A stretch of DNA of 34,355 bases. Origin: Jimgerdemannia flammicorona (taxonomy: Eukaryota). Of the stretch, positions 1 to 34,355 are shown piece after piece (position 1 is the stretch's first letter; each line of letters opens with the position of its first letter). The stretch is from contig RBNJ01000276.1 of the NCBI GenBank assembly GCA_003990765.1, forward strand, positions 1-34,355, written 5' to 3'. A model generated the notes under the pieces. That model searched no databases and was not told the origin of the DNA. It saw nothing but the letters and a program-made list of their open reading frames with translations. A program made the position numbers and the translations under genes.

Positions 1-5
1 AAAAA

Positions 6-538
6 GAGAGTGGTATCTTGTAGCTCTTGAGTACTGGCCTGTGGGAACTCCTGGCAGAGGAGGTTTTCTATTTTGTACTCCTGCCACATTTGGAGGCATT
101 CAGTAGCAATGGTGATCCTTGTTTCCATTTTGTAGTTGTAGAGAATAAAGTGATAAGGGTCTGCAGTACCCAGGTTGACACTAGGAGTCCTTCTTGAGTG
201 AGTCCTCATGGCTCTTCTGATGTCTTGGAACATCCTTTCTTCAACTGAGGTATCTTGGTAGTTCCTTGACCTTGAGGTTTGGCAGGCAGCAGATATTTCA
301 TTTGTGGTAAGTCTTTGAGCTATTTTGGGATTGGTGGTTCTTGTTGGTTGCTGCTACTATAGTTTCTTAATCCTTTTTTTATATTCTTCAGGATGCTTGT
401 ACTGTGGTCACAATGACTCACAGTTGGTCATCATTGCTCATCTCATATACCATATGATCTTCTTGTACTCCAATCTGGTGGCTTGCAAGGAAAGGCTGTC
501 TCCTGTGCTGATGTCATTATTCTGGGGTCACCGTTACA
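6..538 (-). mobile_element. 5' portion (about 530 bp) of a Gypsy family A LTR, minus strand, inserted into the Copia element
   Basis: Reverse complement starts TGTAACGGTGACCCCAGAAT at 538 and matches 11878-12410; outer flank reads ATAT. Encodes the N-terminus of the LTR ORF (MFQDIRRAMRTHSRRTPSVNLGTADPYHFILY...). The match ends at about position 6, next to the window edge. Confidence 0.92.
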
Positions 539-3688: not shown

Positions 3689-5061
3689 TTTTTTTATAGT
3701 CACTTGGACTCCTTTATTCCACTAGTCTATATGAATTTAACTACAAATTTATCCTACCAACCACCTATTCCATACTATAAAGATAAAATAAACCTAACAG
3801 GTCCTATCAACCCACCCCAATTTTTCACTGCACCCCACCCTCACCTAGTACCAGATGACCCTGACTCCCCAATACAATGTCTTATATCTTCTTCACCACC
3901 CCCAACTCCTGCCTCCTCCCCTGGTGCCACCAATCCTATACTACTTCTCTTACAAGTCAGTGCTATTGCTCCACCAGGTCCCCAATATCCATCCAACATT
4001 TACCTTTAAAGACCTATTGCCAGTATATTGCCATTAAGACCCACACACCCAAGATCTGCCCAACACCTCCCCAAATGTCTCCAACATCCCCCACCAGTCT
4101 CCTCCAGGTGACTACACTGATAGAATCTCCCAGCCTCCTTCTATCAGTACCCCAATATTCCTCCAGCATCTGCCAATAACCCTTCACCCCTGGGCAGGCC
4201 TCAATGACATGCTCTGGGGTCTGAATTACTTCTCCAGAGATCTCGGCACACCATTTACAATCTCTGCACCCATTGACCACCATCCATCCTGTCTGATAAT
4301 TCGACATCATATTCCTTCTCAGGAACCACCACCAAACTACTCAATATTTAGGAGGTACCACCTTATTCAAAGTAGCCACCCATCTCTAAATTCGACCCCA
4401 TTCCCACATCTCACCAATGCCAGCTGTCTGCCATCCTACTGGCCACTGCTCAAGAGGGCCTGATCTGGCCTCTTCTATAGCCTCTACTAGAGAATAGTCC
4501 TTCAGCTCCTTCTCTTCTACTCTGTGTAGTCCAAGTTGCCACTACTACTGCTTGGGGTCAGTCCCCTCTCCTATTGCCTCCACCTCTGGCCCTGTTAGTC
4601 CCATCATAAGCCAGGTCTCAACAATGCCCCACCAGAACCCTTTGAACCTCATCCTCCCCACTGATCCAACTTGAAGTAGCCCTTGCAAATCCTTCCTCTC
4701 TGCACTCCAAGGGCAGAATCTGATCTCCCAATTGTCCATTACCAATCTGCCCCAACTTTCTTCCCCTAACTCTACTAATCGGTGACCCTACCAGCCTCTT
4801 AGTGCCTTCAACCTTCATCAAAAGTCCACCAACCCAACCTCTATCAGTAATCAGCAGCACTAATGCTTCTCATCCAATCTGTGGCCATCTACCCCTCCAG
4901 AGCTATCCTTCAATAGCCTTTTTGAGCTGCTGCACCACCCACCTAGGGAAATCTAAGTGGTAATCCAGATACCACAACTTCAGCAGCCAGTACCCATTCA
5001 GGACCACCACTCTCTCCACCAGGGAGAAGTTTCGGCCAGCTCAGCCTATCAGCACACCTTC
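3689..5061 (-). mobile_element. 5'-truncated L1/Tx1-like non-LTR retrotransposon (3' part of ORF2), degenerate
   Basis: Minus strand: RNFSLVERVVVLNGYWLLKLWYLDYHLDFP (homologous to 34080-34170), a C-terminal CCHC finger CKWC...PEHVIEAC (ORF 4014-4310), AATAAA at 3713-3718 and an A7 tail at 3689-3695. Confidence 0.85.
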
Positions 5062-5690
5062 AGTTCCCACAGGCCAGCACTCAAGAGCTACAAGATGCCA
5101 CTCCCATGGATATATGCGAAATGAGAACAGCTAAGAAGATCCATCAGATCTTCAGGCATGCACTATGGTCGATCCCCAACTTGGAGTATGTTAGAGTCTC
5201 AGATTTCAGAGATCTGTCATCCTACCATATCAATTCACTAGAAGCCAGAGTAGCTACAGAAGCCCAGTCCACTATCACTCTCAATAGTGATGAAGTAGAA
5301 GACTTCTGGCATCCTATTCTCCAGAATAACCCAGACCAATTCCTGCAAGGATTGATCTCAGTATTCCAAGGCTCAAGCATCCAGGTTAGATCTCCACAAG
5401 ATCCCACATTTGTCCCCTATTTTGTGGAAGAGAACCTTATAGACTGGAGAGCTCCAGATCTCCTTGTTTCCAATTTCCCTGCTGCCGAATGTAATGATAT
5501 CATCAGCAATGACATTATCCCACATGATATCGACATATGTGAAATGCATGATGAAGCATGCAAAGTACATGAAATACGTGACCTACATGACAAATTCTCA
5601 GACCTCATCTCCTTCGAAGATATCCTGATCTCTGATGACGAGGATGAAGCCCCTATGGTCCTGAAAATTCTGCTCTAAGTTCCTTGTTAT

Positions 5691-5820: not shown

Positions 5821-5937
5821 TGTACAACCATCAGTGCCAACCCTGGAACTTGGCAGTTTTCCTATACTGGCATTTTATTTTAGTTATTGGAATTTATATT
5901 TAGCTTTATATCTTAGCAATCATTGAATTATATTTTG

Positions 5938-5970
5938 TATAAATATCACTCTTATTTCCTCTGAAATAAA
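5938..5970 (+). promoter_or_regulatory. Putative LTR TATA box (TATAAATA) and polyadenylation signal (AATAAA)
   Basis: TATAAATA at 5938-5945 and AATAAA at 5965-5970; the same pair is retained in the other family A LTRs (13242-13274, about 15291-15323, about 22498-22530). Confidence 0.6.
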
Positions 5971-6179
5971 TTCAGTTCTATCTGGTTTACTTATACAATC
6001 CCTTACAAGTAATCTAAGAGATAACAAGATAGTTAAAGATACGAAGTTTGAGGACTATAAGACCTTGAGAAAGTACTCCAATAAGAACTTACTTATAACA
6101 AACTTGAGTTAGTCTAAGAGATATACCTTGAAGAGAATTTGGCATATTTGAAGGACTCAGCGACCACTATGTGACAACT

Positions 6180-9200: not shown

Positions 9201-10323
9201 CTACAGGAAGCTCAATACCATCACCAAGAAGAATAGGCAGCTCTTGCCAAATATTCAAGAAATCCTTACCACTCTTGGAAGCAAAGCCAAATACTACACT
9301 ACCTTGGATCTGTTCTCAGGCTTCCATCAGATTGGTCTCACTCAAGATGCCAGTGAGAAATCAGCCTTCATCACACCTGATGCCACCTACATCTACCTGT
9401 GAATGCCATTCAGAATGTGCAATGCCCCAGCAAGCTTCCAGCGAATGATGAATAGAGTCTTCAGCAATGAGATTGGAAAATGGTTCTTTGTCTATATTGA
9501 TGATATGATCATCTTCAGCAACACTATATGGGAATATGTCAATCACATACAGCTAGCCCTCAAGAAGCTCAAGGAGCATGGCCTCTATATCAAGCCCAAG
9601 AAATGCAAGTTTGTAACTCAAGAAATTGCCTATCTAGGACACCTCATCAACCAGACCAGAATCCATACAGACCCTATGAAGATTTAGGCTATTGTAGCCT
9701 ACCCAAGACCCAGAACAACTACAGAAGTCTATGCCTTCCTTGGACTGGCCAGTTACTACAGAAGGTTCATCAAAAGATACTCCAACATTGCAGCACCTAT
9801 CTATGAGCTACTGAAGAAGTAGACTAAATTCAAATGGATCAAGGAGCACTAAGAAAACTTCAATGAACTCAAGACCAGGTTGACCCAAGCACCTATCCTC
9901 AGAAGACCAGATTGGAACCTAGAATTCATCCTGCAGACAGATGCAAGTGCTATAGGACTTGGAGCAGTTCTAGCTCAGAAGAAAGATGGATATGAATATG
10001 TCATCTCCTATGCAAGCCAAGATACCCATGGAGCAGAATAGAACTATAAGTCATACAAGCTTGAATACTTAGCAGTAGTTTAGGCAGTAGACAAGTTTCA
10101 CTACTACCTAGCCAGGAAACACTTCACCATTCAAACAGACCATTCTACTCTTGTCAGGCTATTCCACACTCTGAACCCCAAAGGAATATATACCAGATAG
10201 ATCTATAGGCTGCAAGAGTATGACTGTGCTGTCAAATACCACTTAGGAAAGACCAACACCAATACTGATGTACTCTCAAGGATACTCTGAAACACTCTCA
10301 TCAAGACTATTCAACATGAATAA
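6297..10323 (+). pseudogene. Gag-PR-dUTPase-RT-RNase H polyprotein of family A copy 1, disrupted by point stops and a frameshift
   Basis: Gag PPTFYGY...FIEDFEQF; decayed zinc knuckle CFRYREEGHYAKNY; protease AIIDTGA (about 7717-7737); RT LYIDYRKLN, LDLFSGFHQ, MPFRMCNAPASFQ, YIDD (9493); RNase H LQTDAS, TDH, NTDVLSR. The frame break near 7655 is absent from copy 2. Confidence 0.93.
8386..8802 (+). other. dUTPase domain inside pol (open frame here)
   Basis: All five trimeric dUTPase motifs: AIGIDL, GIMKTRSSLA, GVIDPDYTGEI, HDRIGQML, RGEQGFGSTG. Confidence 0.95.
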
Positions 10324-11564
10324 GGAGCTATACTATGGATTAATCAGCTACCTTGGGCAGTAGAAGATGCCCAACCACCTCAAACTCTGGACAATCACCA
10401 TCATCAACCAGACTTGGAAACAGTTTGAACTAGACAACACTACACTCAGAAAAGGAGGAAAGCTAATAATATCTGAACACAAGAAGTATCAAGTAATGAA
10501 GGAAGTACATGAGCAAGGATACTTAGGAGAAACCAATACATACGACAAAGTAAGAAGAACCATGTGGTGGCCCAAGATGGAAGATGACCTGTGCCAATTT
10601 GTCAAAGGGTGTGATAAGTGTCAAAAATAGAAATAAGATTAGCAAGACCAGGTACCTGGGTCATCAAGAATTGAGCCTATCCCCTTCTACCACATTACAA
10701 TGAATATCATTGGATCACTACCAGTAATACTATCAGGAAACTACTATATTATAGTTATTGTAGACCTCTTCACCAAATGGATAGAGGCAGGAGCATTACA
10801 AGAGGCCAATGCCTTCTCTATAGCTGACTTCCTGTACTGAGAAATCATCTGTCACTACAAGATACTGAAGCAAATCACAACAGACCATGGCACAGAATTT
10901 GTCAATGGATTCTATGAGATAATGTATCAGAAATATAAGATCCAGCACATCAAGACTACTGCATACCACCCTCAAGGAAATGGACAGACAGAGAGAACCA
11001 ATAAGAACCTCAAGAACATCCTAGTGAAGATCTCAGAGACATATGAGAATTGGGATAACTATCTCCCAACCACCCTCTCTGTCCTATGAGATATATGGTC
11101 ACAGAGTACACACTTTACCCCCAAGAGAGCTGCTCTTCAGAGAAGAAGATTCTGATGGAACCTCAGCCACAAATCTAGACCTAACTTAGAGATAGATTGA
11201 TGCAGAAATCCAGAGACTATACCAAATCAGGAAGAAGGCTGAAGATTACATCACCAAGTCACAAGCACTGATAAGAAAGAATGTGGAAAAGAATTACAAG
11301 GCCCTAGAACCCATCTGAATCAGAGAAAAGGTTCTACTGTATCAAAATATAGTAGAAGCCTCATGGTTGCAAAAACTGGAGCCCAAATGAGAAGGACCCT
11401 TCTATGTGCAAGATATCAAGAAAACTACCTTCTGGCTTAGAAAAATCTCAGGAAATATACTGCCTACCATAGTACATAGGAACAGACTTAAGATGTACCA
11501 CAAACCTATACAAGAGAAGTAAAACATGATGACTGCCCATGAGGTTCTAGTCCACGAATCATAA
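10316..11564 (+). pseudogene. Integrase as a separate ORF, family A copy 1
   Basis: Starts MNKELYYGLISYL in the +1 frame relative to RNase H; HHCC region (EVHEQGYLG...WWPKM...CDKCQK); core VDLFTKWIEA, TDHGTEF, YHPQGNGQTERTN; GPF motif; ends VHRNRLKMY...HES*. Confidence 0.9.
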
Positions 11565-11839: not shown

Positions 11840-11867
11840 ATAAGGATGCTCAAGAAGATCTTTATTC

Positions 11868-11877
11868 AGAAGGAAGA
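11868..11877 (+). promoter_or_regulatory. Polypurine tract of family A
   Basis: AGAAGGAAGA immediately precedes the 3' LTR; identical at 21197-21206. Confidence 0.75.
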
Positions 11878-13480
11878 TATAATAGTGACCTCAGAATGAT
11901 GACATCAGCACAAGAGACAGCCTTTCCTCACAAGCTACCAGATTGGAGCACAAGGAGATCATATGGTATACAAGATGAGCAATAATGACCAACTGTGGGT
12001 CATTGTGACCACAGTATGAGTATCTTGAGGAATATAAAAGAAGGATCAAGGAACTACAGTAGCAGCAACCAATAAGACCCACCAATCTCAAAATAGCTCA
12101 AAGACTTACTACAAACAAATACCTGCTGCCCACCAAACCTCAAGGTCAAGGAACCACCAAGGTACCTCAGTAGAAGAAAGGATGTCCTAAGACATCAGAA
12201 GAGCTATGAGGATCTGCTCAAGAAGGACTCCTAGTGTCAACCTGGGTACTGGTGACCCTTATCATTATATCCTCTACCACTATGAAATAGAAACAAGGAT
12301 CACTATTGCCACTGAATGCCTCCAAATATGGCAGGAGTATGAAATAGGAAACCTTCTCTGCTGGGAGTTCCCACAGGCCAGCACTCAAGAGCTACAAGAT
12401 ACCACTCTCATAGATATATGCAAAATGAGGACAGCTAAGAAGATCCATCAGATCTTCAGGCATGCACCATGGTCAATCCCCAACTTGGAGTATGTTAGAG
12501 TCTCAGATTTCAGAGATCTGTCATCCCACCATATTAATGCACTAGAAGCCAGAGTGGCTACAGAAGCCCAGTCCACTATCACTCTCAATAGTGATGAAGT
12601 AGAAGACTTCTGGCATCCTATACAACAGGATAACCCAGACCAATTCCTGCAAGGATTGATCTCAGTATTCCAAGACCCAAGCATCCAGGTTAGACCTCCA
12701 CAAGACCCCAAATTTGTCCTCTATTTTGTGGAAGAGAACCTCATAGACTGGAGAGCTCCAGATCTCCTTGTTCCTGATTTCTCCACTGCCAAATGTGATG
12801 ATGTCATTGGCAATGACATCATCCCACATGACTTCAACATATGTGAAATACATGATGAAGCACACGAAGTATGTGAAACGTATGATCTACATGATGAATT
12901 CATGGACCTCATCTCTTTCAAAGATATCCTGACCTCTGATGATAAGGATGAAGCCCCCATGGTCCTGAACATTCTGCTCTAAGTTCTCTGTTATATTGAA
13001 TAATTCCAGCACCAGCATTCTGAGGTGATGCAGAATTGTTCCAGCACTGGCATTTGATATAACACTGAATAATGCCAGCACTAGTATTCTGATGTGATAC
13101 CAAATTATACCAGCATTCTGAACCTATATAACCATTAGTGCCGACCCTGGAACTTGGCAGTTTTCCTGTCCTGGTATTTTATTTTAGTTATTGGAATTTA
13201 TATTCAGCTTTATATCTTAGCAACCATTGAATTATATTTTGTATAAATACCCCTCTTATTTCCTCTGAAATAAATTCAATTCTATCTGATTCACTTACAC
13301 AATCCCTTGCAAGCAATCTAAGAGATAACAAGACAGTTAAAGATAAGAAGTTTGAGGACTATAAGACCTTGGGAAAGCACTCCAATAAGAACTTGCTTAT
13401 AACAAACTTGAGTTAGTCTAAGAGATACATCTTGAAGAGAATTTGGTGTATTTGAAGGACTCAGTGACCACTATGTGACA
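11878..13480 (+). repeat. 3' LTR of family A copy 1 (about 1.6 kb)
   Basis: Starts TATAATAGTGACC (decayed TGTAACGGTGACC), ends GTGACA, followed by ATAT. Confidence 0.95.
12206..12982 (+). CDS. LTR-encoded accessory protein of unknown function (258 aa, acidic C-terminus; possible alternative start at 12182)
   Basis: Open frame wholly inside the LTR; same frame open at 5106-5678 and in the 6-538 fragment; decayed homologues in both LTRs of copy 2, with the 3' LTR copy ending at the same NILL* stop. Confidence 0.75.
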   Translation: MRICSRRTPSVNLGTGDPYHYILYHYEIETRITIATECLQIWQEYEIGNLLCWEFPQASTQELQDTTLIDICKMRTAKKIHQIFRHAPWSIPNLEYVRVSDFRDLSSHHINALEARVATEAQSTITLNSDEVEDFWHPIQQDNPDQFLQGLISVFQDPSIQVRPPQDPKFVLYFVEENLIDWRAPDLLVPDFSTAKCDDVIGNDIIPHDFNICEIHDEAHEVCETYDLHDEFMDLISFKDILTSDDKDEAPMVLNILL

Positions 13481-13799
13481 ATATCAATAACTTGATAAAT
13501 AATCATCTAAATTTGATGATCTTTATTTCATTTGAAAGCCCTTAATAAGGGCTATCTAATGATACCAAGAACATTGAAATCAGATCATGCATTACTGAGT
13601 TATGAAGGAAAACATATGAATTGCCAATTTTGGAAATTATTCAATTTGCTGATTTTGGAAATTTTGTCATATAGAATGTTTACCTTAATATCTCAGTAAT
13701 GCATAATCTGATTTGTATCATTAGAAAGGGCTTATTACAGGCTTTCAAAGAACACTAAGATTATCAAATTTGGATAATTATTCATTAAGTTATTGATAT
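13481..13799. repeat. AT-rich fold-back palindrome (arms about 125-135 bp), MITE-like
   Basis: ATATCAATAACTT (13481) pairs with AAGTTATTGATAT (13787-13799); AAATCAGATCATGCATTACTGAG pairs with CTCAGTAATGCATAATCTGATTT; TTTGAAAGCC pairs with GGCTTTCAAA. Confidence 0.85.
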
Positions 13800-13968: not shown

Positions 13969-15576
13969 TGTAATAGTGATCTTAGAATAGTGACATTATT
14001 ACAGGAGACAGCCTTTTCTTATAAGCCACTAGATTGAAATATAAGAAGATCATATGACATAACTCACCCAGGCTATAAGGTGATCAATGATGATAAATTA
14101 TAAGTTATGATAACTACAAGATAGATATCTCAAGAAATATAAGAAGGACCAAGAAACTGTAATAATTTAAACAAGACTCACAAAATCCTAAAATAGTTCA
14201 AAAGACTCACTATAAACAAATATCTGCCACTCACCAAACCTCAAGGTCCAGGAACTACTAAGAATTCTCAGTCTAAGAAAGGATATTCCAAGATATCAAG
14301 AGAGCTATAAGGATCTATACCAGAAGAATTCCTAGTCTTAACCTAGATACTAGTAACTCTTATCACTTTATTCTCTACTACTATAAAATGGAGACAAGGA
14401 TCACTACCACTACTAAATACCTCTGGATATAGTAGAAATATGAAATAGAGAATCTCTTCTGTCAGGAATTCTCTCAGGCCTATCCCCAGAAGATACAAGA
14501 TGCCACCACTATAGATACATATATATGAACTGAGGATAGCCAAAAAGATCCATCAGGTCTTCAGGTATACACCTTGATTAATTCCCAACTTAGAGTATAC
14601 TAGAGTCTCAGACTTCAAGAAATTGTCAGCCCACTGCACAGATGCACTAGAGGCTATAGTGGCCACAGAAGTCCAATCCACCATCACTCTCAAAAGTAAT
14701 GAGGTAGAAGAGTTCTGGAATTCCATCCTCCAGAACAATTCAGATCAATTTCTGCAAGAATTAATCTCAGTATTCTAAGGCCCCAGTATCCAGGTTAGAC
14801 CCCCTCAAGATTCCATCTTTATCTCCTACTAAGTGGAGGAAAATGTTATAGATTAGGGAGCCTCTGATCTCCTTGCTCTCTCTGCTACTACCAAACTTGA
14901 TTATATCATTAGTAATGATATCATCTCACTAATCAATATGTGAAACATATTAAATACTTGAAATAGATAGAACACTTATAGAAATATTCACTGACCTTAT
15001 CTCCTTTAAAGATATTCCAACCTCTAGCCTTAATGATAGTAATAAAGATGAAGTCTCCAGAATTCTGAACATTCTGCTCAAAGTTCTTTATACAACTGTT
15101 GAAATTATTCTGGTATTCTGATCTTATATAACTATCAGAAATTATTTCAGTATTCTGATCTTATATAACCAATTATATAGATACTCAAATTTGTACTTAT
15201 AACTTGAAGTTTTCTATTATCAAATATCTTATTTGGTTATTAAATTTTATATTTAGCTTTATAACTTAGCAACTATTGAATTATATTTTATATAAATACC
15301 CTTCTCATTTCCTTTGAAATAAAGTCAGTATTAAAATACTCAAGTATTTAAGTACTCAACTACTCAAGAACACAACTGTTCCAGTCCTGTACTTAATTCC
15401 AAGTAAGCAAATCCAAGAGACATCAGAATAGTTTAAAGATAAGAAGTTTGAGGACTATAAGATCTAGGGAAGGCACTCTAATAGAACTTGCTTATAAGAA
15501 ACTTATAGTTGGTCTAAGAGATATATCTTAAAGAGAATCTGATATACTTAGAGAACTTAGTACCTACTATGTGACA
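13969..15576 (+). repeat. 5' LTR of family A copy 2
   Basis: TGTAATAGTGAT...CTATGTGACA, followed by ACTTGG. Confidence 0.93.
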
Positions 15577-21206: not shown

Positions 21207-22783
21207 TATAATAGTAACCTTAGAATAGTGACATCATTATAGAAGACAGTCTTTCCTTACAAGCCTCCAGATTGGAGCATGAGAAGATCATATAGTATAA
21301 CTCACCCAGGATACAATTTGAGCAATGATGATAAGAAGGACCAAGAAACCACAGTAGCAGCAACTCAAACAAGACTCACAAAATCCTGAAATAGTTCAAA
21401 AAACTCACTATAAATAAATATCTACTACTTGCCAAACCTTAAGGTCCAGGAACCACTAAAGATTTTCAGTCTAATATAGGATTTTCCAAGATATTAAGAG
21501 AGCTATGAGGACTTGTATCAGAAGGATTCCTAGCCTTAACCTGGATACTGGTGACTCTTATCACTTTATTCTCTATCACTGTAAAATGGAGACAAGGATC
21601 ACTACCACTACTGAATACATACCTCTAGATGTGGCAGAGATATAAAATAGAAAACCTTCTCTGCTGAGAATTCTCTCAGGCTAATATCCAGGAGATACAA
21701 GATGCCACCTCTATGGATATATATGAACTGAGGGTAGTCAAAAAGATCTATCAGATCTTCAGACATATACCTTGATCAATCTCTAACTTGGAGTATACCA
21801 GAGTCTCAGACTTTAAGAAATTGTCAGCCTACTATACAGATGCACTAGAGGCCATAGTGGCCACAAAAGTCCAATCTACCATTACTCTCAAAAGTGATAA
21901 GATAGAAGAGTTCTGAAATCCCATCCTTTAGAACAATCCAGATCAATTTCTGCAAGGATTAATCTCAGCATTCTAAGGCTCTAGTATTCAGGTTAGACCT
22001 CCTCAAGATCCCACCTTTATTCCCTACTTTGTAGAGGAAAATATCATAGATTGGAGAGTCCCTGATCTCCTTGCTCTCTCTACTGCTGCTGAATGTAATG
22101 ATATCATTGGCAATGATGTCATCTCACTAATTGATATGTAAAAATATGTGAAACATATGAAATATGTGAAATAGATAGGATGCTTATAGAAATATTTACT
22201 GACCTTATCTCCTTTGAAGATATTCTAACCTCTGATCTTGATAATAGTGATGAAGATAAAGTCTCCAGAATTCTGAACATTCTGCTCTAAGTCTTTATAC
22301 AACTGTTGAAATTATTCTAGTATTCTGATCTTGTATAACTGTTAGAAATTATTCCAGTATTCTTATCTTATACAATTAATTATACAGACACTTGAATTTA
22401 TACTTATAATCTGAAGTTTTCTATATTCAAATATCTTATTTAGTTATTGGATTTTATATTTAGCTTTATAACTTAGCAACTATTGAATTATATTATGTAT
22501 AAATATCCTTCTCATTTCCTTTGAAATAAAGTCAGTATTAAAATCCTTAAGTATTCAAGTATCCAACTACTCAAGTATACAATAGTCCCAGTCCTCTACT
22601 CAATTTCAAGTAAGCAAGTCCAAGAGACAATAGAACAGTTTAAAGATAAGAAGTTTGAGAACTATAAGATCTTAGAAAGGCACTCTAATTGAACTTACTT
22701 ATAAGAAACTTATAGTTGGTCTAAGAGATATATCTTGAAGAGAATCTGATTTACTTGGAGAACTTAGTACCTACTATATAATA
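21207..22783 (+). repeat. 3' LTR of family A copy 2
   Basis: Follows the PPT; terminus GTGACA decayed to ATAATA. Confidence 0.92.
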
Positions 22784-22949: not shown

Positions 22950-23870
22950 TGAGAAAGAACTTCTAACAATTATATATATCTTAGATTAGTAGAGATACTA
23001 TCTAGAAAATATTAAGTTTAATATTAATATCTAATTTACTCTATTATATTAAAAACTAAATAAAGCCAAAATCTTCAAACCTTCAACTTAATAATTATTT
23101 ACAAGTCTGATAAGATACTTATAGTACTAGATATCTTATTAAGATACTCAAACCTTGCTAAAATAATATAAGTTATCTTAATACTAGAATTCCTAGACCA
23201 AATCAGACAAGTCTTTAAGATAGATACTATTACTACTAGAGTTTTCTCAAATAAGCTTAAAAATATATACATATTACATTGAGAATAATCTGATTCATCT
23301 TTAAGATAAAGTCTATCTGTTATATAAGTAATATAGAACTTTACTATATGATATTATAAGGATATCATAACTCTCTTAGAAAAATAGTATTTTGTAGTTA
23401 GATATATATATAGTAATCAGTTGGTAACTAAATTTGTATAAAATACTCTAGAGATTTAAGTAAATAAACTCTAGTCTGAAATCTGAGTTAAAAAGTAAAA
23501 GATATATCTATCAAGAATTAATTAATTTAAGAAAAGAATTACAATACTTAGAAGAAAAGTCTACTCAAGAGCTACTATAAGGAATTTGTAAGCTTTCTTC
23601 CTCTGATTTAACTCTGATCTACTTGATAAAACTAAGTTAGAGAGATCTACTATCTATAATATATTTATTGGACTAAGCCTGAAGAATCACCATCAAGTTC
23701 TAAGAAATATACTTTATCTTTTAAGATTATTCTAGAGAATTAACTGAGATAAATAATTGAAAAATTTTGTCATTTTTTGATAAAGTAACTGAGGGCTCAA
23801 ACTAATCTAAATTATTATTCTATCTTATAATATATCTTATTGCATCAGTTTATTATAATAGCTACAAATA
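22950..23870 (+). mobile_element. Old remnant (3' internal region plus LTR) related to family B
   Basis: TTTTGATAAAGTAACTGAGGGCTCAAACTAATCTA (about 23775-23810) matches about 25001-25036; TCTACTCAAGAGCTACTATAAGGAATTTGTAAGCTTT (about 23560) resembles about 24402-24438. Boundaries uncertain. Confidence 0.55.
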
Positions 23871-24004: not shown

Positions 24005-25085
24005 TGTGACAATCTATAAAAATGCAGTACCTAAAAACTTAGCCAGATGATACAAACATTAGCACAGCATAGTATCCAGTAATTGCTGTGGAAAATGTAT
24101 AAATAACCCAGATAGCTAAGGAAAGGAAAACATTGACAGTAGTTGTCACTCTGACAGTAGTTGTCACCCTAATAGTGGCTGTCACTCTGATAGTAAAAGT
24201 TACCCTATGAATAGTATTCTATAGTTAGCCAGATAGCAACCAAGATAGCAACCACAATGTATAAAATACCCCAGAGACAAGAGTGAATAAACCTCAGTTC
24301 CAAAATACAAAGCAAAAGACAAGTCTGCCTACTACACTTCAAGAGATATGTCTGCTCAAAGCCACTTGATCCAGGAACAATTGTAATACTTAGAAGAAAT
24401 GTCTGCTCTACAGTCACTACTAGGAGATTGTGAGCTTTGCCCCTTTCCCACTCTGGTCTACTTTCCATTACAAAGAATGAGTCCATTTTGGTTCGCTTGC
24501 CAGATAAGCCTGAAAAATCTGAGTTTGCTGCCCAAGTTCAAGGAAGAACTTCACAGCCTTTTGAGTAATCTGCCACTTGAGGAATAAGCTGCTGTTTTTA
24601 ACCACTATTTAAGAAAGTCCGCCATGTTTTGTCCACCAATCTGCATCATTCTATATCCTGTCCACTTGTCTGCTGCATTCCACCACACTGCAACCCACAC
24701 TGTTCAAGTAAACCATATTTAAGAAACCTGCTGCATTTAGTCTACTATCAGAAAAGGAACCCAATCACTGTCACACCAGTAACCTGATTCTCAGAGAACC
24801 CACACTTTTAAGAAAATCAGCTAAATTTGCTATATACAAGATTGCTGTATCACACAAATTAGTTCACTACCTAAGAGAGAACTCCATTTATACACAAAAG
24901 ACCAATAACTCAAGAATGCCACCAAATTAGGAAGTCACATGCAAGAATTCTCCAGTTTGAATATTATACCACTAGATACAATACCTGAACATTTTGTTGC
25001 TTTTGACAAAGTAACTCAGGGCTCAAGCCAATCTACACAGGTGCCCAACCTTGTAATTTACCTCTATTGAGTCAGGCACATTACA
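24005..25085 (+). repeat. 5' LTR of family B (about 1.08 kb)
   Basis: TGTGAC...ATTACA; right end inferred from the adjacent PBS because the 3' LTR does not cover it. Confidence 0.8.
24133..24204 (+). repeat. Four tandem 18-bp units with an internal inverted repeat TGACA-N5-TGTCA
   Basis: ttgacagtagttgtcact / ctgacagtagttgtcacc / ctaatagtggctgtcact / ctgatagtaaaagttacc. Confidence 0.85.
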
Positions 25086-25087
25086 TT

Positions 25088-25105
25088 TGGAAGCTCAACT
25101 GGGAA
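25088..25105 (+). promoter_or_regulatory. Primer binding site of family B, tRNA-Pro-like
   Basis: TGGAAGCTCAACTGGGAA lies 2 nt after the LTR end and resembles the tRNA-Pro PBS TGGGGGCTCGTCCGGGAT after G-to-A and C-to-T decay. Confidence 0.6.
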
Positions 25106-25477
25106 GATTTCAAATCAATGTGACTTTTCAGCTCACAAGAACCTACAGTCAAACTGGATACATTTGATATAATACCAATTTCTACCACTACAGGAGAACC
25201 AGTCATCACTAGTATTTGGACAGGAAGAGAAGTAATTACATCAAGACTTGCCAACTACCCAGCATCAGAATGATCCCAACCAGAACCAGAAGGCAGTGCA
25301 GCCTGAAATCTCCAACCAGATCAACCAGACAATACAGGCAGTCCTACTAGAAATTTCAAAGAACTTGCACAAGAATTAGAAGATCTTATCACATGAACCT
25401 GAGACCTTACAGCCAGACACCCCATATTAGTCCCACCAATCTCATCAATAGAATCTTTACCACAACCCCTTGCAGAG

Positions 25478-28400
25478 TTGAAAGAAGCTCCTATAAGAAT
25501 ACCTAGGCTTATTCCACTTCATCCAAGATTCAGAATACCATCCTCAAGATATCCAAGCACCCCCATCTCCAGTAACAGTTCAGAAAGTGAATCAGAATCA
25601 GAATCTGAACCTGAATCAGAATCAGAAGAAAGTGACAACAAAATGGCCACCTCATTGCCAACCTTTGCAGGATACCTGGAGGAAGACCCCAGAGAATTCC
25701 TTGACAGAATTGAAGGAATTGCAGCCTTGAGGAATCTCTCAGATGAAAGAAAAATCACTATCTACAAGGCTCAGCTCAGAGAACCAGCCAGAGAAATTTT
25801 CTATTAAACAGCAAATAATCCAGATTTAGAACTGGTGAGACAGATATAAGCAGCAATATCTTATGAGCTAGAATATGAGGCCATGGTCCACTGGCTCATT
25901 GAAAAGTATGCAGGAAATGAAACCCAGTACAAGGCTCAAGAATCCATCATAGGAATGAAGATAAATTTTGGAGAATCACCCAGAGCCTTCTCTACAAGAA
26001 TCCAGAAGAGAATGCATACTGCCAGATTCAATGCCACCAATTAGGACATCATCAGTCCAATGACCTTCATGAATGGAATTCCCCCAAACATTGCTCAGCA
26101 TGTTTGCACCCTAGGTATTAGAAGGTCTGAGGAGTAAGTAGATGTGGCTCAGAGATTCTTTGATGTCAGACAAAGAACTACCTAGAGTATCATGACAAGA
26201 AGGAAGATAAAGAAGACATCCTGGTCAAAGCCCTACAAGGACTCCTTCAAGGATAAGAAAGATCTGAAGAAAGAAGGCCAGCCAAGGAAGGAAAAAAGAA
26301 CAGAAGTGAAATTCAAGACCTCAGCTCCAAATTGGACTGATTGGTTGGACAGATTGAAAAACTTACCACATGTAAAAATTGGGGCTACCAAGACAACAGA
26401 GGATACCCACCACAGAGGAGCCAAGGTTATACACCAAGAGATAATAGGAATTACCAGCAAGAAGAAAGAAGGTACTCTGTCTGAGACAGAGCCCAAGTCC
26501 AATGCTTTCACTGTGGACAATTTGGACACTATGCTACTGAATGTGACAACAAAAGAAGTAACCAAAGGGACTCAGAATCATCAAACCAAAGGAATGACAC
26601 TCAGTATAAGAAGACTGAAGCCTATTCTGTTGAAGATTTTGAGGAAGTAAGCAATAGCAAAAACTACAGTGACCTGGATCTGTACTCTACCAAGGTCACT
26701 ATCTGAAAAACAGTCTACCCAGCAGAGAACATATAGGAAGACCATCCAGGAATATTAGCCAAAGAATTATCCAAGAAGAAGATGAAGAATGTGAGGAGGA
26801 ATAAGTAGAAATATCTCTCTGGACTCCTTTACCTTTTGTCCTTAAAACAAATGAGCTGCCACCAGAGGATGAAGAGATGGAATAAGAAAAACAGCAACCT
26901 GTTGCTGCAAAGTCCAGAAAAAGTACACCCCAAAGACCATGCCTAGAGACATCTACAATGAAGTCTGGTAGAAGATTCAAGAGACCAAAATAGATGTCCC
27001 TCTCCTGCAGTTCCTGCAACTGACACCAGCTGGAGTCCAAAACAAATTGCTGAGAACCACCAGGTCTAGCACTGGCCAAGTTCCAATCCTACAGCAAGAA
27101 CCAGTTTCCATCTCTGTCCAAGCAGCTGAAAGACATGTCAGCACCTACTTACATGGAGATATTGGAGAACAAAAGGTGAAGATCCTCATAGACACAGGAG
27201 CAGCTGTCTGTGTCATTGCCAAATGGTACCTGGACACCCTTCAATGGCCCATTGATGGACCATCCAATCCCAGCACCATAGTGGCAGATGGAGCCTGAAC
27301 TCAACCCCTTGGAGAAGTGTGAAACATCACTATCTCTCTTGGACATATTTAGTTCTCTATCCCCAAAGCTGTTATCACAGAAGCCATTATCTATGACATG
27401 ATTCTTAGCACTAACTAGATGAAGGAAATGAATGCAGTCATTGATATTGATCAACAAGTACTCAAGTTTGACTATAGAGGCAAGAAGTATAGAGTTAAGG
27501 TGACCAGCTATGAGCAATTGAAGAAGAAGAAGAAGGTTACTATTCAGAAAGAATATGCCAGCAGTGAGGAGTCTACTACAGAAGAGAAAGAAGAATCTGA
27601 AGACAGAAATGATCCCAGACTCAATCTCTGAATTAACCTGGTGGATGACAGACTAGAAGACAATATATGGGCCAAGAACACTATCCCTATCACCATTGGA
27701 GCTATTGCAGAAGAAGCCAAAGGATGCCCTACCTGCCTCAAGAGACACAAGTGTTCTGAGCATTCCTCCAAGATCATGGGAACAAGGAAATCGCCTGGCA
27801 CAGCCTGCCCAGAATGCAGAAAGAAGAAGAAGAAATGCAGACATGTTCCAGAAACACCTGCAACTAAAGCTGCAGAAGTACAAACAATTTGGAGTCAAGA
27901 ATCATCTGAGAAAGAAGAAACTTCTGATCAAGAAGTCCCTGAACAAGAAGCACCTAAAGAAGAAGAGGTCCCTGAACTCATTCCCTGGGATGATCCTTGT
28001 TGGATACCACCTGAAGAAAATGACCCTTGAAATATAGAAGAAGGACCCAGTACAATCACCATTATCCCTAAGAAAGAAACTCACTAAGAAAAGGCTTTCT
28101 GGCTAGGAAGATGTCCACACCAAATAGTCTTCCACTCTCCTTGAGACTACTGCTACCAGTGCCATTTACTAGACCAATAGGAAAGATAGAGACCCCAGAG
28201 ACCAGAATCCCTGAACACACTTGCACAGTCAACTACTTTTCAAGAAATTACCACCAAGTTGCAAAGCCAATTCAGGGGACAAGGCTTCTTCACCCAGACA
28301 GAAATATATCCCTTGTCTACTCTTCTACTCACCTATAACCAAGATGGGTACCGTTTCCCAAGACAACAAGAGATCAATAACTGGGAACATCATTTCTGAG

Positions 28401-31044
28401 CAATGGGATATTGTAACCATGGAAGACACCCAGACTGCCAAGACTGTAGACATCAGAAGATCTATCTCAGTCATAATGTTGCAGTCCACACCTTGAAGAG
28501 AGGAGATAACCAAAGCCAGATCCAAAAAAGCCAGATCTGAAAAAGCCAGACCAAAAAGCCAGGAAGAAGGACCCTTAAGATCTATGATTTAGGCAAAGAC
28601 ATCCTAGCTCTCATCAGACATACAATCTACTAAAAATGGGCAGAAGATGCTACCAACTTCATGGAAGCCCTTGACCCTATAGGAAGCAGGGGAATCAACT
28701 ATCTCTGAGACCCCTCTACTGGAGCCAGATGGCCACACTTCAATCTTAGAGCTTGGAGGCTCTCTGCTAGTGGAGCTTCAGTCTTAGGAAAGTCCGAACT
28801 CAGTAAGGATATTGCTCAGTATGCCCTGCTGCACTCTAAGGCCAAACCCCCAACCAAAGCCCACTCAGAAGATATAGGGTATGACCTCCACAGTCTGGAG
28901 GATGAATCTATCAAACCTGGAAAGACCTTCATGATCAGAACCAGATTAGTCATGCAGCCACCTCAGGGAGCTTATATCCAACTGACCTCAAGGTCTGGAC
29001 TTGTCAGACAAGGAATAACTGTGGAAGGAGGAACTATTGACTCAGGATATATAGGTGAGATCAAGGTCATCCTACACAACAGCAGTACAGAATAGCACTG
29101 AATCATTAGAGAACAGAAGATTGCCCAAGCAGTCTTTATGAAGATCAAAACTCCACAATTGGAAGAAGTCTCTGAACTAGTTGAAGGAACAAGACAAGCC
29201 AAAGGATTTGGAAGTTCAGACAGGAAGGAAGTACATCTCCTTCAAGTCAACCACCTCAAAAGGAATGTTTCCCAGCAAGTGTATCAGCAATCAGTCAGAC
29301 TGCACAAGAATCTGATCCTGGAGCCTGAAGAACAAACTACCTTCAAAATCTTTGTACCATCCGACCCCAGAAACCTTTTCTTTGAACCCAAGGAAGATAT
29401 TCCCCACCTGAACATAGAGGGACACACATTCCCTGACAAGATGAACTCAGTACACTCCCAAGCAACCAACCAAAGTTGGGAAACCATAATTTTGCCAAAA
29501 GGAATCATCATAGGACACTTGGTACCTTTTCTTAACTGAACTCATAGGGAAGTTTATGAACTAAACCTATTGGGAAATGGCAAAAGGTCCCAGAAGAAAG
29601 GAAAGGCCCCTCTGCAACCCAGGAGACAGTGAAGCCTTTCACTAACATTGGAGAAGAATTGACACCCCAACAACAATAACAACTTATAGAACTTCTCAAC
29701 AAATATCAAGATATCTTCACTACCAATTATGGCAACCTGCTATATAATCCATCATATCACCACAGCATAAATACAGGAAATATAACACCCATCCAACAGA
29801 AACTCTATAGAATACCTCATCACTTGAAAACATTTGAAAAGGAGCACATTCAAGAACTCCTAGACAATAGAGTTATCTGACCCTCTATCAGCCCCTGGGC
29901 TAGCCCTATACTTATTATACCAAAGAAAGGAGAATGGAGACTCTGTGTGGACTACAGGAAACTCAATTCAGTTACCAAAAAAGATGCCTATTCTTTGCCC
30001 AGAATCAATGACCTTTTGGATCAGTTACAAGATGCCAGATACTTCAGCAGTATGGACCTCTTTGCAGGATTTCACAAGATCTCCATAGACCCCAAGAACA
30101 TTAAAAAAAACAGCCTTCCTTGCTCTAGGAAAACTGTTTGAGTACCTCCAAATGCCCTTTGGACTTTGCAATATACCCCCCACCTTCCAGAGAATGATGA
30201 ATTCAGTCTATGCCCCCTTGATCCACTACTGTCTGATCATATACATGGATGATTCCAATATCTATTCAGCAAATTTCAAAGAATACCTGTACCACCTAGA
30301 GGAATTCTTCAAGCTCACCTGCAAAACCACTTGAGACTGAATGCAAAGAAATGTTACTTTGGAAAACAAAAACTCAAATTCCTCAGATTCATAGTTTCAA
30401 AAGAAGGAACTCATGTGGACTCAATGAAGACTGAGAAGAACAATTGGCCAGTACCCAAGACCCAAAGGAAACACTATCATTCCTGATACTAGTATCCTAC
30501 TATAGAAGATTTATCTAGGATTTTGCCCAAATTGCAGCCCCAATCCAAATCCTTCTCAAGAAAGAAGTACCTTATAAATGGACAGAATCACAAGAAAAAG
30601 CCTTCAAAGAACTCAAGAACTGCATGACTACAGCACCAATCCTTGTGCACCCCAATCTACAGAAGCCATTTATCTTTTATACAGATACTTCTAAAGATGG
30701 TCTTAGAGTAGTTCTAGTCCAAGAAGGACCCAATCAACAGTACCATATGATATGTAGCTTCTGCAAGTAGAGCTACTAATCAGCAGCAGATGAACTATGG
30801 TAGCACTAAACTGGAATGCCTTGCAGTCATATAGGCAGTCACCTTGTTCAAGCATTACCTCATTGAAAAAAGGTTCACCTTGATCACAGACCATATAGCC
30901 CTGAAATGGCTATTCAACTGTAAGGAACCCACCAGAATCCTAGCCTGCTGGATCCTTATTCTTCAGGATTACAAAATCACCATCATCCACAAAGCAGGGA
31001 AAGCTCACAACAATATTGATGTACTTTCCTGGCAGCCCCAATAA
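25478..31044 (+). pseudogene. Gag-PR-Cys/His region-dUTPase-RT-RNase H pseudogene, family B (likely start ATG at 25643 or upstream)
   Basis: LPTFAGYLEEDPREFLD; intact knuckle CFHCGQFGHYATEC (26503-26544); ILIDTGAAVCVI; LCVDYRKLN, MDLFAGFH, MPFGLCN, YMDD (30242); LYTDTS, LITDHIALKWL, HNNIDVLS. Confidence 0.92.
28817..29221 (+). other. dUTPase domain inside pol, family B (two point stops)
   Basis: AHSEDIGYDL, LTSRSGL, GGTIDSGYIGEI, QKIAQAV, RQAKGFGSSD. Confidence 0.92.
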
Positions 31045-32103
31045 ACCAGAAGAAGGGTGTCCCAAGGAGCTACACCCTAAAGGAAGTCCCTGTGGCCATC
31101 AATAAACAAGAAGATCTCATCTGAAAAGAACATCAGAAAGCCCACCAAGGACAGACAAGTACAGAAGACAAGATTTGAAAACTATATCAATACTGGCCCT
31201 GCCTCAGAACCTAAGTCCAAGACATCATCCAGAAATGTGACACTTGCCAGAAGTACCAAGGAAAGAAGAACTATCAAGCCCCTTTATAACCAATTCTCCC
31301 ACCCACTCATAACTTTCAGAGATAGGGAGTAGATATAATAGGACCCCCGCCAATAACACCAAAATGAAACAGATATATCCTAGTATTTATTGAACACTTG
31401 ACCAAATGGCCTAAAGCACCCCATGGAGATCTCAGATGCCCTTTCCATCATTGGACATTTTCATGACCTCATCCTCTGATATGGACCCTCTGAAGAACTC
31501 ATCTCTGATAGAGAAACTGAATTTGTGAATAACATAATCTCAAGTTATGCACGAATTCATAGGATCCACCTGAAACAAACCACCTCTTATTATCCTCAAA
31601 CCAATGGAATGACCAAAAGAATGAACCAGACTATCAAGAAAGGACTTGCCTGAGTCAATCCTACTAATTGAGATCTCTGCTTACCTGAGATCCTATGGGA
31701 AATTCGAAATACCACTGCTGCATCCACCAAACAAAAGCCCTTTGAAATGATGTTTGCCAAAAAGACCAGAACTGCTGACCATGAGAACCTCAGAAAGCTC
31801 TTTGAAAAAGGAGATCAGCTGTAAAATGAAGCCCAAATTCAGATTATCAAAGCCCAGGAAAGACAAAAGAAGTATTATGACCAGAAACAGAAAGATCAGA
31901 AGATCAAGATTGGCAATCAAGTCCTAGTTTAGAGAAGCATGATAGAAACAAACTTTGCTGCTAAACTGGAACTGAAATAGGAAGGACCATACCTTGTACA
32001 CAACATCAGAGGAACCAGTATCCATATAAGAAGCATGGATGGACATGTCTTGAGAACTCCAGTCCACATCAATTGCCTCAAGATATACCTGTACAAACTA
32101 TGA
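31041..32103 (+). pseudogene. Integrase as a separate ORF, family B
   Basis: EHQKAHQG...YWP...CDTCQK; GVDIIGP; LISDRETEF; PQTNGMTKRMNQTIK; EGPY; ends PVHINCLKIYLYKL*. Frame differs from RNase H. Confidence 0.88.
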
Positions 32104-32603
32104 CTCAGAGGATAGATCAATGCCTTCAGACCCTCATCCTTAGCTCTTTCCAAGCCCTGCCGATTCCTCTGTCCCAGTTTTGCCAACTTGAAGGAACCTC
32201 CATACAATTAATCCAGAAGCATCAAGAGAACATTGCCATTGCCCAGAGATTGCTTCAGATCCACCATCTACAAGCCTTCTACAATATTGGACAGCTATTG
32301 ATAGAACAATCTTATATAAGGAGCCCAACCAGAATTACTCTCAGAGAAGCAAGCACTGCCAAATGAATCTACATCCTGTACAATCGAAATATTGGAGCCC
32401 TGGTGTAGTCTCACTTCTATCTCAGTGATAGCTATCTGATAAATGAGACCATCTTTCAGAGTATCCTCCAACAACTAAACATACTATTTCCTGAAGAACA
32501 AGAAGAAGATCCAGAATTAGAATGGAGTAGCCCAGATATAGAAGGAGATGATAAGATGGGTATAGATGCAGAAGATGTCTATACTTATTGAAATGATGAC
32601 TAA
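32100..32603 (+). pseudogene. Accessory ORF (about 167 aa) between integrase and PPT, family B
   Basis: MTQRIDQCLQTLILSS...AFYNIGQLL...EASTAK*IYILY...acidic tail, in one frame with three internal stops explicable as C-to-T; its ATG overlaps the integrase TGA. Confidence 0.7.
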
Positions 32604-32630
32604 AGGATAGCCTGGGACAGACTACCCTTT

Positions 32631-32642
32631 AGTGGGGGCTGA
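32631..32642 (+). promoter_or_regulatory. Polypurine tract of family B
   Basis: AGTGGGGGCTGA directly precedes TGTGACA. Confidence 0.65.
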
Positions 32643-33280
32643 TGTGACAATCCATAAAAACACAGTACCTAAAAACTTAGCCAGATGACACAAACATTAG
32701 TACAGCATAGTAACCAGCAACCATTGCTGCAGAAAATGTATAAATAACCCAGATAGCTAAGGAAAGGAAAACCCTGACAGTGTTTGAGAGATAGGCCTGC
32801 CAAAAGCCACTTGATCCAAGAAGGATTGCAACACTTAGGAGAAATGCCTGCTCTACAGCCACTATTAGGAGATTGCAAGCTTTGCCCCTTTCCCACTCTG
32901 GTCCACTTTCTGTTACAAAGAATGAGTCTATTTTGGTTCACTTGCCAGATAAGCCCAAAGAATCCAAGTTTACTATCCAAGTTCAAGGAAGAACTTTGCA
33001 GCCTTTTGAGTAATCTGCTGCTTGAGGAATAAGCTACCATTTTCAACTGCCATTTAAGAAAGTCCGCCACATTTTGTCCACTGATCTGCATCATTCTATA
33101 TCCTGTCCACTGGTCTGCTGCATTCCACCACACCACAACCCACACCATTCAATTAAACTGCACTTAAGAAACCCACTATATTTAGTCCACTATCAGAAAA
33201 GAAACCCAATCACCATCATACTAGTAACCTAATTCCCAGAGAACCTGTGCTTTTAAGGAAATCAGCTAAATTCACTGTAT
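32643..33280 (+). repeat. 3' LTR of family B, with an internal deletion of about 200 bp and a truncated 3' end
   Basis: Aligns with 24005-24140 and about 24337-24835, then similarity stops. Confidence 0.88.
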
Positions 33281-33460
33281 AGTACACCACACTTATACTC
33301 AACCTTTTTGCTACTCCTTTTTAATGTATTTAATAAAAAAATATAAAAAATCATAAATTGATATAAAATCCTGTCAAGTTTAATCAAATAGAGAGCTTTT
33401 ATTATTATTATATATAATATTTTAATAAAAATAGTTTTTTTTACTATTTTATAGTGGATA

Positions 33461-33585
33461 CCATAACTGGTCACAATTTTAGCCTTAAATTAAGCACTTT
33501 CACAAAGCCAAATTAATCAAAAAGGCAACTCATGAGACCGGTCACAATTTCAGCAGGCCTAAAAGTCACTTTTACAAAGCCAAAT
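33461..33585 (+). repeat. Imperfect tandem duplication (period about 70 bp)
   Basis: GGTCACAATTT...CACTTTYACAAAGCCAAAT occurs twice. Confidence 0.55.
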
Positions 33586-33591
33586 CTCAAA

Positions 33592-34355
33592 CTGCTGGAA
33601 GGTAGTCGGGCCGCACTGACGTGTAATGGTCACCGCGGGAGGGCGTTTTCCTTGGGAAGAGGAGTGCCTCAGGGGGACCCTCTGTCCCCTATTCTCTATG
33701 CCCTGTCGCTGGAGCCATTGATGGATAGAATTCGGTGGAAGATAGCAGGGCTCTCTATCTATGGTATAGTGTGGAAGGTGGGGGCCTTTGCTGATGATAT
33801 GGTGGTTGGACTTGGGTCTGTGGTGGATGTCGGGGAACTTCGGGAGACGGTGGAATGGTACGAGGCTCATTCTGGGGCAAAACTCAACTGGCATAAGTGT
33901 GAGACGATGGTGCTAGGGAATGGGTTAGTGGGTGGGGACGTCATTGGAACAATTGTCCCTACGGGTGAGGTGGTGCGATATCTGAGCATCTTCCTCTCTG
34001 TCTATGGTTCTGTCTTGCCAAGGGTGTGGTGGGAGAGCATGGTGCATAGTTGGGGGGAGGCCCTTCGAGGTTGGGGAGGCCGCCATATCTCTTTGGCAGA
34101 GCGGGTGTCGATCCTGAATGTGTATTGGTTCCCTAAGCTGTGGTATGTGGCGTATCATCTGGACTTCCCGGCATGGGTGGTGAAGAAGCTCGTAAAGGTG
34201 GCTAGGGATTGGATTTGGGCAGGGAGGAGGTCCCAGGTCAGTTGGGATACTCTTGCGAGACCAGTAGTCAGGGGAGGTCTTGGCCTGGTGGATTTCCCTA
34301 AGAGGCTGCACTGCTTGAGAGCCTGGTGGTTGAAGAGAGCTGTGGAATTGCGAGG
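33592..34355 (+). mobile_element. Young 5'-truncated L1/Tx1-like LINE; ORF2 reverse transcriptase open to the window edge
   Basis: Stop-free frame: RGVPQGDPLSPILY, AFADD, SGAKLNWHK, VRYLSI, SLAERVSILN, RGGLGLVDF. Missing from the ORF track because it has no stop in the window. Confidence 0.93.

Follow-up and report, generated by a model that had tools for sequence, protein, structure and literature searches.

Two accessory genes at the 3′ ends of Ty3/gypsy retrotransposons in Jimgerdemannia flammicorona, one of them inside the long terminal repeat, and their possible kinship

Accessory open reading frames in the window

We analyzed a 34,355-nucleotide stretch of the Jimgerdemannia flammicorona assembly GCA_003990765.1 (contig RBNJ01000276.1, positions 1 to 34,355; here, the window). 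Self-comparison and Pfam scans of the open reading frame (ORF) pieces resolved it into three decayed Ty3/gypsy retrotransposons, all on the + strand: two elements of one family (family A, elements 1 and 2) and one element of another (family B). Both families carry an additional ORF at the 3′ end, which in family B follows the integrase and precedes the polypurine tract and in family A lies within the long terminal repeat (LTR). These are the places given in an earlier note on this DNA, and translation also recovered the motifs that it quoted for each family. The features on which the argument rests are as follows.

32100..32603, + strand: family B ORF3, 167 codons (translations, relatives, dN/dS)
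31897..32103, + strand: last part of family B pol, the GPY-bearing C-terminus of integrase (read from the sequence)
32631..32639, + strand: putative family B polypurine tract, the purine-rich run AGTGGGGGC, abutting the 3′ LTR (read from the sequence)
32640..33281, + strand: family B 3′ LTR, starting TGATGTGACA and matching 24005-24140 (90%) and 24342-24836 (85%)
11867..11877, + strand: polypurine tract of family A element 1 (CAGAAGGAAGA), abutting the 3′ LTR (four-way alignment of LTR starts)
11878-13481, + strand: 3′ LTR of family A element 1, ∼1.6 kb (1604 nt; self-blastn and LTR-start alignment)
12182..12982, + strand: family A ORF, ∼265 codons, wholly inside the 3′ LTR of element 1

The ATG of family B ORF3 (32100-32102) overlaps the pol stop TGA (32101-32103) as ATGA, and its true stop, TAA at 32601-32603, falls 36 nt before the 3′ LTR start at 32640, an edge fixed by aligning the starts of the 5′ and 3′ LTRs. 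The ORF3 frame is also open for ∼45 codons upstream, across the end of pol. Three in-frame stops mark the window copy as decayed: 32364-32366 (TGA), 32406-32408 (TAG), and 32589-32591 (TGA). The first directly follows TAK and is R in intact relatives. Reading through these stops, the protein contains an invariant leucine/proline-rich stretch at residues 9 to 27, then LQAFYNIGQLL (32268-32300), 18 residues, TAK (32355-32363), IYILY, FYLSD (32415-32429), and an acidic tail.

The family A LTR begins at 11878, right behind the polypurine tract AGAAGGAAGA. The same 5′ edge recurs in four LTR copies, and the copies preceded by unrelated flanking DNA (n = 2) begin TGTAAT/TGTAAC. Counted from this edge, the ATG of the family A ORF at 12182 is LTR position 305 and its stop (12980-12982) is position 1105. 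The third codon of the element 1 copy is TAA, after which the frame is open over 12191-12982 (263 codons) and has its next ATG at 12206. Its motifs follow in the order WQEYEIGNLL (12329-12358), 24 residues, TAKKIHQIF (12431-12457), VRVSDF (12494-12511), and an acidic tail. Elsewhere in the same LTR are TATAAAAG at position 154, TATAAATA at 1363, and AATAAA at 1390. The motif matches of TATAAATA and AATAAA, ∼260 to 290 nt past the stop, suggest that the ORF is located in the unique 3′ (U3) region. In family A ∼650 nt separate the pol stop (11520-11522) from the ORF ATG, compared with none in family B, and no frame clearly stands out as coding in the part of this spacer between the pol stop and the polypurine tract.

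Just past the stop of the family A ORF, element 1 carries three head-to-tail units of ∼35 bases (CCAGCAC...TGATGT...; 5700-5800 and 13005-13105) that are absent in element 2 and could be U3 enhancer-type repeats. TGATGTG in this region was also considered as a relic of a family-B-like LTR start. This was rejected because the window contains 8 occurrences of the 8-mer, 3.9 being expected, and element 2 has none.

Both ORFs are genes under purifying selection

Profile and sequence searches recovered relatives of both proteins, all of them metagenomic and none with a Pfam domain; they are few, and the distribution of both genes is narrow. Family A has 5 relatives with intact frames (161 to 271 aa). 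Family B has 20, found by profile search and including a second subfamily (42 to 183 aa), 4 of which are full length at 169 to 183 aa. Of the 12 relatives that cover the region, 11 keep the family B ATG; P0010 lacks it, as does L001, a metagenome locus that was the single family B result of the contig scan. L001 shares 79% nucleotide identity with the window over 28283-32353 and has the same arrangement of pol end and ORF3. The corresponding scan of metagenome contigs for family A returned 243 pattern matches, none confirmed, and scans of viral contigs gave no confirmed match to either family.

Comparison of the 3′ LTRs of elements 1 and 2 over the core of the family A ORF (160 codons) gave 54 synonymous (Sd) and 62 nonsynonymous (Nd) differences, for a dN/dS ratio (omega) of 0.20 (binomial p 1e-9). 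Three further segments of 42 to 133 codons gave omega values of 0.19 to 0.24, compared with 0.94 and 1.33 in the shifted frames. For family B ORF3 against L001 (82 codons, Sd 39.5, Nd 24.5), omega was 0.06 in the ORF frame and 0.61 and 3.7 in the shifted frames. Because the synonymous excess is confined to the ORF frame and intact relatives occur in metagenomes, we conclude that both ORFs are real, element-encoded genes under purifying selection, in line with the conservation that the earlier note had claimed for them. Within family A (element 1 versus element 2), the accessory ORF is 67% identical, gag 68%, and pol 71%; within family B (window versus L001), the accessory ORF is 76% and pol 64.5% identical.

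The opposing view is that neither is a gene, the frames being open by chance in decayed repeats or, in family A, kept by constraint on the regulatory DNA of the LTR. The window copies do contain stops (three in family B ORF3 and many in element 2), and nucleotide identity between the family A elements is no higher in the ORF region (∼72 to 75%) than in the remaining LTR. Constraint on DNA, however, would not be frame specific as the observed synonymous excess is, and intact frames occur in the 5 (A) and 20 (B) independent metagenome relatives at 52 to 89% identity. We therefore regard the absence of genes here as very improbable.

Constraint in family A extends upstream of the annotated ATG: in the same frame, 12030-12181 (∼150 nt) gave an omega of 0.23 on 42 codons. 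This frame reaches a TAA within TATAAAAG at LTR position 154, and one metagenome relative begins 21 codons earlier than the ATG. The start of the family A protein, or an upstream exon junction, may thus lie upstream of 12182.

Two orphan acidic proteins

The two accessory proteins are alike in general composition. Both are acidic (isoelectric point, 4.5 to 4.7), with the last 40 to 50 residues strongly so and mixed with W, Y, F, and L, and in both R is far commoner than K. The N-terminus of the family A protein is arginine-rich, with a net charge of +5 over the first 20 residues and 6 R in 13. A membrane segment was not found in any of 6 proteins, for which no 19-residue window reached a Kyte-Doolittle value of 1.6 (maxima, 0.59 to 1.36). 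Given this lack of a hydrophobic segment, neither predicted protein is Env-like, as the earlier note had also judged.

No described family accounted for either product. Pfam-A gave 0 families at an E value of ≤10 for both. A profile search of PDB gave 0 matches for the family A protein and, for the family B protein, dynein regulatory complex subunit 4 alone (E value of 0.004), a weak match of coiled-coil type. In the ESM Atlas, the best score for family A was 0.86, to unnamed fungal clusters and below the useful range; for family B there was no usable feature match (template modeling score of ≤0.36), and the Atlas model of the protein had a predicted local distance difference test (pLDDT) value of 0.43. 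AlphaFold2 run on both alignments predicted all-helical but unreliable structures whose mean pLDDT values of 34.1 (A) and 43.3 (B) are too low for a fold search. By these sequence and profile searches, neither protein matches a known family, and both are classed as orphan accessory genes.

Both host elements belong to one dUTPase-bearing clade

Pfam hits fall in the same order in both families: zf-CCHC, aspartic protease, dUTPase, RVT_1, RT_RNaseH, and Integrase_H2C2 or rve. With the pol order protease-reverse transcriptase-RNase H-integrase, flanking LTRs, and a polypurine tract before the 3′ LTR, both are Ty3/gypsy (Metaviridae) elements. Both also belong to the Gypsy lineage that bears a dUTPase between protease and reverse transcriptase. 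The dUTPase domain (PF00692) of family A (E value of 6e-27) lies in the ORF at 8152-9402, upstream of RVT_1 of the same ORF, and that of family B (E value of 2e-16) lies at 28709-29095, between the protease (26972-27298) and the reverse transcriptase (from 29881). The two pols align colinearly at 38% identity over 811 aa, and their ends (integrase C-termini) are 40.6% identical over 64 aa. This shared order, dUTPase included, together with the colinear alignment, places the two families in the same clade.

In both families pol stops ∼35 to 40 codons past the GPY/GPF motif (B, 32101-32103; A, 11520-11522). Reading of the sequence, in which the last piece was not Pfam scanned, revealed no chromodomain after the integrase in either family. 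As pol ends so shortly after the GPY-type module that no room is left for one before the stop, these are not chromoviruses. The LTRs of the two families share no blastn match, and the bases following their 5′ LTRs differ, which bears out the earlier description of unrelated LTRs and different primer-binding sites.

Are the two accessory genes related?

The earlier note had assigned the two ORFs to the same protein family. Part of that assignment stood, in that the register formed by its motifs was recovered by profile-profile comparison; the support sank close to non-significance when more family B sequences were included. Using 5 natural sequences from each family, HHalign recovered the motif register over 63 columns at 25% identity, with a score of 30.3, a P value of 7.8e-4, and a probability of 25%. 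None of 477 shuffles reached that score (245 by column and 232 local, 12-column), and reversed controls scored 14.1 and 17.7. HMMER aligned the same core in both directions (single-comparison E values of 6e-5 to 0.04). Applied to the complete set of 785 six-frame fragments from the window, the family B profile placed the family A ORF top among the 783 non-B fragments, at 7.1 bits. Other non-B fragments reached at most 3.5 bits; the next two were copies of the family A ORF, and unrelated fragments reached at most 3.3 bits. One of five Smith-Waterman comparisons (P0003/P0008) was positive in the same register, with z values of 4.5 to 4.8 against shuffles. Predicted helix starts and ends, from two low-confidence models, match within ∼2 residues across the aligned core. 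The prior for kinship is fair because the two genes share a clade, an element end, a strand, and a general character.

A considerable body of results weighs against kinship. Adding the decayed copies of the window (A4 versus A5) lowered the HHalign score to 23.0 (P value of 0.014). A2 against a 16-sequence family B set scored 22.9 (P value of 0.015; probability, 3%), and 15 all-intact family B sequences gave 21.6 (P value of 0.024; probability, 2 to 3%), a score equaled or beaten by 1 of 110 shuffles both locally and globally. The latter two alignments hold 10 to 11 further natural family B sequences, and the effective diversity available was 1.3 to 1.8. Four of the five A-B pairs were null by Smith-Waterman (z values of 0.3 to 2.1), and BLASTP of the two window proteins found nothing in the motif register, its best match (E value of 0.26) lying in another region. 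The positive control, gag from these two elements, gave z values of 7.4 and 5.8 from single decayed copies, with 0 of 300 shuffles reaching either. The accessory ORF is as conserved as gag within its family (67% versus 68%), so that an orthologue evolving like gag should be easier to see.

The profiles themselves point the same way. For the family A profile, noise in the window (8.5 bits) was as high as the best match to a family B protein (8.4 bits), and the decayed ORF3 of the window scored only 2.0 bits. A whole-library HMMER search with the family B profile (1.84 billion representatives) returned 6 proteins, none from family A. One of them, P0016, was rejected as an unrelated repeat protein; it matches the same core as the profile, which argues that the core pattern is low in information. 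TAK is variable inside family B, where AAERIY, AADRLY, and ATKRIH also occur, and FYLSD likewise varies, while ∼100 strongly conserved residues of family A are without counterpart in family B. Finally, a bare shift of the polypurine tract does not explain the difference in layout, with 0 nt (B) versus ∼650 nt (A) between pol and the ATG.

Taking both sides together, the resemblance between A and B appears, from these alignments, to be real but weak, around a P value of 0.01 and marginally above chance. We consider common ancestry of the two genes a credible reading, for which the balance is close and tips slightly to the negative.

The rival account holds that the A and B genes are real yet unrelated, separately gained or born, with the motifs owed to chance and to a common helical, acidic make-up. 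It would account for the low HHalign probabilities with fuller family B alignments, the null pairwise and BLASTP results beside a far stronger gag control, the variable TAK and FYLSD, the match of an unrelated repeat protein to the same core, and the differences in layout and in length (167 versus ∼265 codons). There is also a precedent, as rotifer retrotransposon families, according to the accessible part of the report, gained their ORF3s independently (Rodriguez, Kenefick and Arkhipova 2017, PMC5408684). It accommodates less easily the agreement of HHalign, Smith-Waterman, and two-way HMMER on one register, the failure of every shuffle to reach the five-by-five score, the first rank of the family A ORF under the family B profile, and the position of both genes at the 3′ end, on the sense strand, of elements of one clade. 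Separate origins are thus a serious possibility, although we stop short of calling them probable.

A possible history and role

In the explanation that we propose, the two ORFs are 3′ accessory genes of one non-chromodomain, dUTPase-bearing Ty3/gypsy clade and would most likely descend from one ancestral post-pol ORF3, of which a common core of ∼55 to 65 residues would now remain. Family B would retain the original place, after pol and ahead of the polypurine tract. For family A, the site of plus-strand priming would have come to lie upstream of the gene, making the gene part of U3, so that it would be copied to both LTRs in each round of reverse transcription and retained on solo LTRs. The LTR lengths are consistent with such capture: subtracting the 1105 nt up to the ORF stop from the 1604-nt family A LTR leaves ∼500 nt, near the 640 nt of family B. 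The earlier note had stated that the domain moved across the polypurine tract; in view of the ∼650 nt between pol and ATG in family A and their absence in family B, we treat this as one possible history and not as a finding. The full proposition is an undescribed accessory-gene family, specific to this clade, that was taken whole into U3 in one lineage through a relocated plus-strand priming site, duplicated at both ends, and left surviving on solo LTRs with possible expression. We put it forward tentatively, as a history that has more chance of being wrong than right.

Expression would probably proceed from the 3′ end of the element RNA through a spliced or subgenomic message. For family B, the AUGA shared with the pol stop would alternatively allow re-initiation, and a spliced message would serve equally well. 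The product could be a small, soluble, probably nuclear regulator whose helical core tethers it to element or host factors and whose D/E-rich C-terminal tail, with its W, Y, F, and L residues, acts like an acidic activation domain that boosts expression of the element. Complex retroviruses encode transactivators at their 3′ ends, and it is from this analogy and from composition that an activator-like role is suggested. It is the weakest step of the proposal, and we think it unlikely to be correct in this form.

The products might instead be adaptors for RNA export or RNA handling, of the Rev or Rem kind, that help unspliced element RNA to exit the nucleus. The arginine-rich N-terminus of family A would suit such a role, the leucine/proline-rich residues 9 to 27 of family B fit the spacing of nuclear export signals, and the retroviral genes in question likewise lie at the 3′ end. 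The two candidate motifs do not occur together in either family, however, and Pfam detected no RNA-binding domain. An adaptor function modeled on these retroviral genes seems improbable, more so than the activator-like role.

Comparison with known elements

Several retroviral accessory genes lie in or overlap the U3 of the 3′ LTR: mouse mammary tumor virus sag, lentiviral nef, and foamy-virus bel/tas. The family A gene is similarly placed, in the LTR downstream of pol and the polypurine tract, on the sense strand and at the 3′ end, and its product shares an acidic C-terminus with foamy-virus Tas. It differs from them in having no sequence relationship (Pfam, 0 at an E value of ≤10), in belonging to a Ty3/gypsy element without env, and in that the whole ORF, rather than part of it, is inside the LTR. 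A narrow literature search found no report of a whole gene under selection inside a retrotransposon LTR, and we regard the in-LTR gene of family A as the more unusual and notable of the two.

Family B is more conventional. Sense-strand additional ORFs (aORFs) between pol and the 3′ LTR are common in plant Ty3/gypsy and Ty1/copia elements, their function being mostly unknown according to the available sections of a review (Vicient and Casacuberta 2020, PMC7264820). Family B ORF3 resembles them by that description of position, between pol and the 3′ LTR, and the same sections contain no passage on ORFs in, inside, or within LTRs.

A similar organization, as far as the accessible text goes, is that of the rotifer elements Juno, Vesta, and TelKA, which have a dUTPase between protease and reverse transcriptase, a GPY/F integrase end without a chromodomain, and family-specific post-pol ORF3s (PMC5408684). 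All three traits are shared with the elements described here. According to the same text, one type of ORF3 recurs across different rotifer retroelement lineages. The rotifer ORF3s, unlike ours, have recognizable domains (Env-like, GDSL esterase, and DEDDy exonuclease), and the LTRs reported there are 159 to 551 bp, compared with 640 and 1600 bp here, with one ORF inside the LTR.

Among fungi, basidiomycete Gypsy elements such as PosPlaTy3-5 also place the dUTPase between protease and reverse transcriptase; in the portion of the survey at hand, these are treated as chromodomain-bearing clades, unlike the present families (Novikova et al. 2010, PMC2864245). In the literature consulted, this dUTPase position is described for basidiomycete and rotifer elements only. 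The legend of Figure 3 in that survey mentions an "additional ORF with unknown function" in some fungal elements. Going by the legend, this ORF may be identical to the ORFs reported here.

Extra genes in LTR retrotransposons are known, and few have a function assigned. If A and B are one family, the window captures an LTR boundary shift that swallowed a gene and, since solo LTRs would keep it, changed its copy number and possibly its expression; the two families would also be naturally paired for work on the role of such proteins. Should the relocation have occurred as proposed, family A would be a retrotransposon counterpart of the retroviral U3 genes, and a single genome would hold both the ancestral state (before the polypurine tract) and the derived state (inside the LTR). 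If A and B share no ancestry, the window simply adds two orphan accessory ORFs to those known, one in an odd position.

Remaining features of the window

The remaining LTRs and the additional copies of the family A ORF are distributed as follows.

3..531, - strand: family A LTR, inverted fragment with its first ∼530 bases (blastn, 89% to 11885-12409)
3-224, - strand: family A ORF in that fragment, N-terminal 74 codons (tblastn, 84% over 74 aa)
5062-6176, + strand: 5′ LTR of family A element 1, truncated at its 5′ end (blastn, 5062-6177 = 12366-13481 at 91%)
5061..5678, + strand: copy of the family A ORF in that truncated LTR (tblastn, 82% over 205 aa)
13971-15570 and 21209-22777, + strand: LTRs of family A element 2 (self-blastn)
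14292..15079, + strand: family A ORF as carried by the 5′ LTR of element 2, decayed by stops and frameshifts
21490..22287, + strand: family A ORF as carried by the 3′ LTR of element 2, decayed
24005-33281, + strand: family B element, with LTRs at 24005-24839 and 32640-33281
24005..24839, + strand: family B 5′ LTR, including ∼200 extra bases (24141-24341) not shared with the 3′ LTR

The 5′ LTR of element 1 is without its first ∼490 bases, and the inverted fragment (to 531, - strand) 4.5 kb upstream holds that part. The fragment and the truncated LTR overlap by ∼44 bases (11885-12409 versus 12366 onward), which a plain inversion does not explain. The interval between them (532-5061) is AT-rich and then contains proline-rich ORFs without a Pfam match. 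A 63-base piece at 23534-23596 resembles 24376-24438 of the family B 5′ LTR.

CpG is strongly depleted in all three elements (window 5062-33281): the observed/expected ratio is 0.06 for element 1, 0.00 for element 2, and 0.03 for family B, compared with 0.36 for the more intact L001 and 0.47 for a LINE-like ORF that borders the end of the window. An excess of TpG and CpA accompanies the loss, and where intact relatives encode arginine, the window has H, C, or stop. This CpG loss looks like methylation-driven hypermutation of repeats or hypermutation resembling repeat-induced point mutation.

A stretch of ∼320 bases that directly follows the 3′ LTR of element 1 (13481-13799) matches its own reverse complement at 73% and may be a foldback or palindromic element lying between elements 1 and 2. 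Beside the family B 3′ LTR, a 279-codon open frame running off the window end (33517-34353) matches RVT_1 (E value of 1e-11), has a G+C content of 54%, and shows far less CpG loss than the neighboring elements; it is a younger non-LTR (LINE-like) element.

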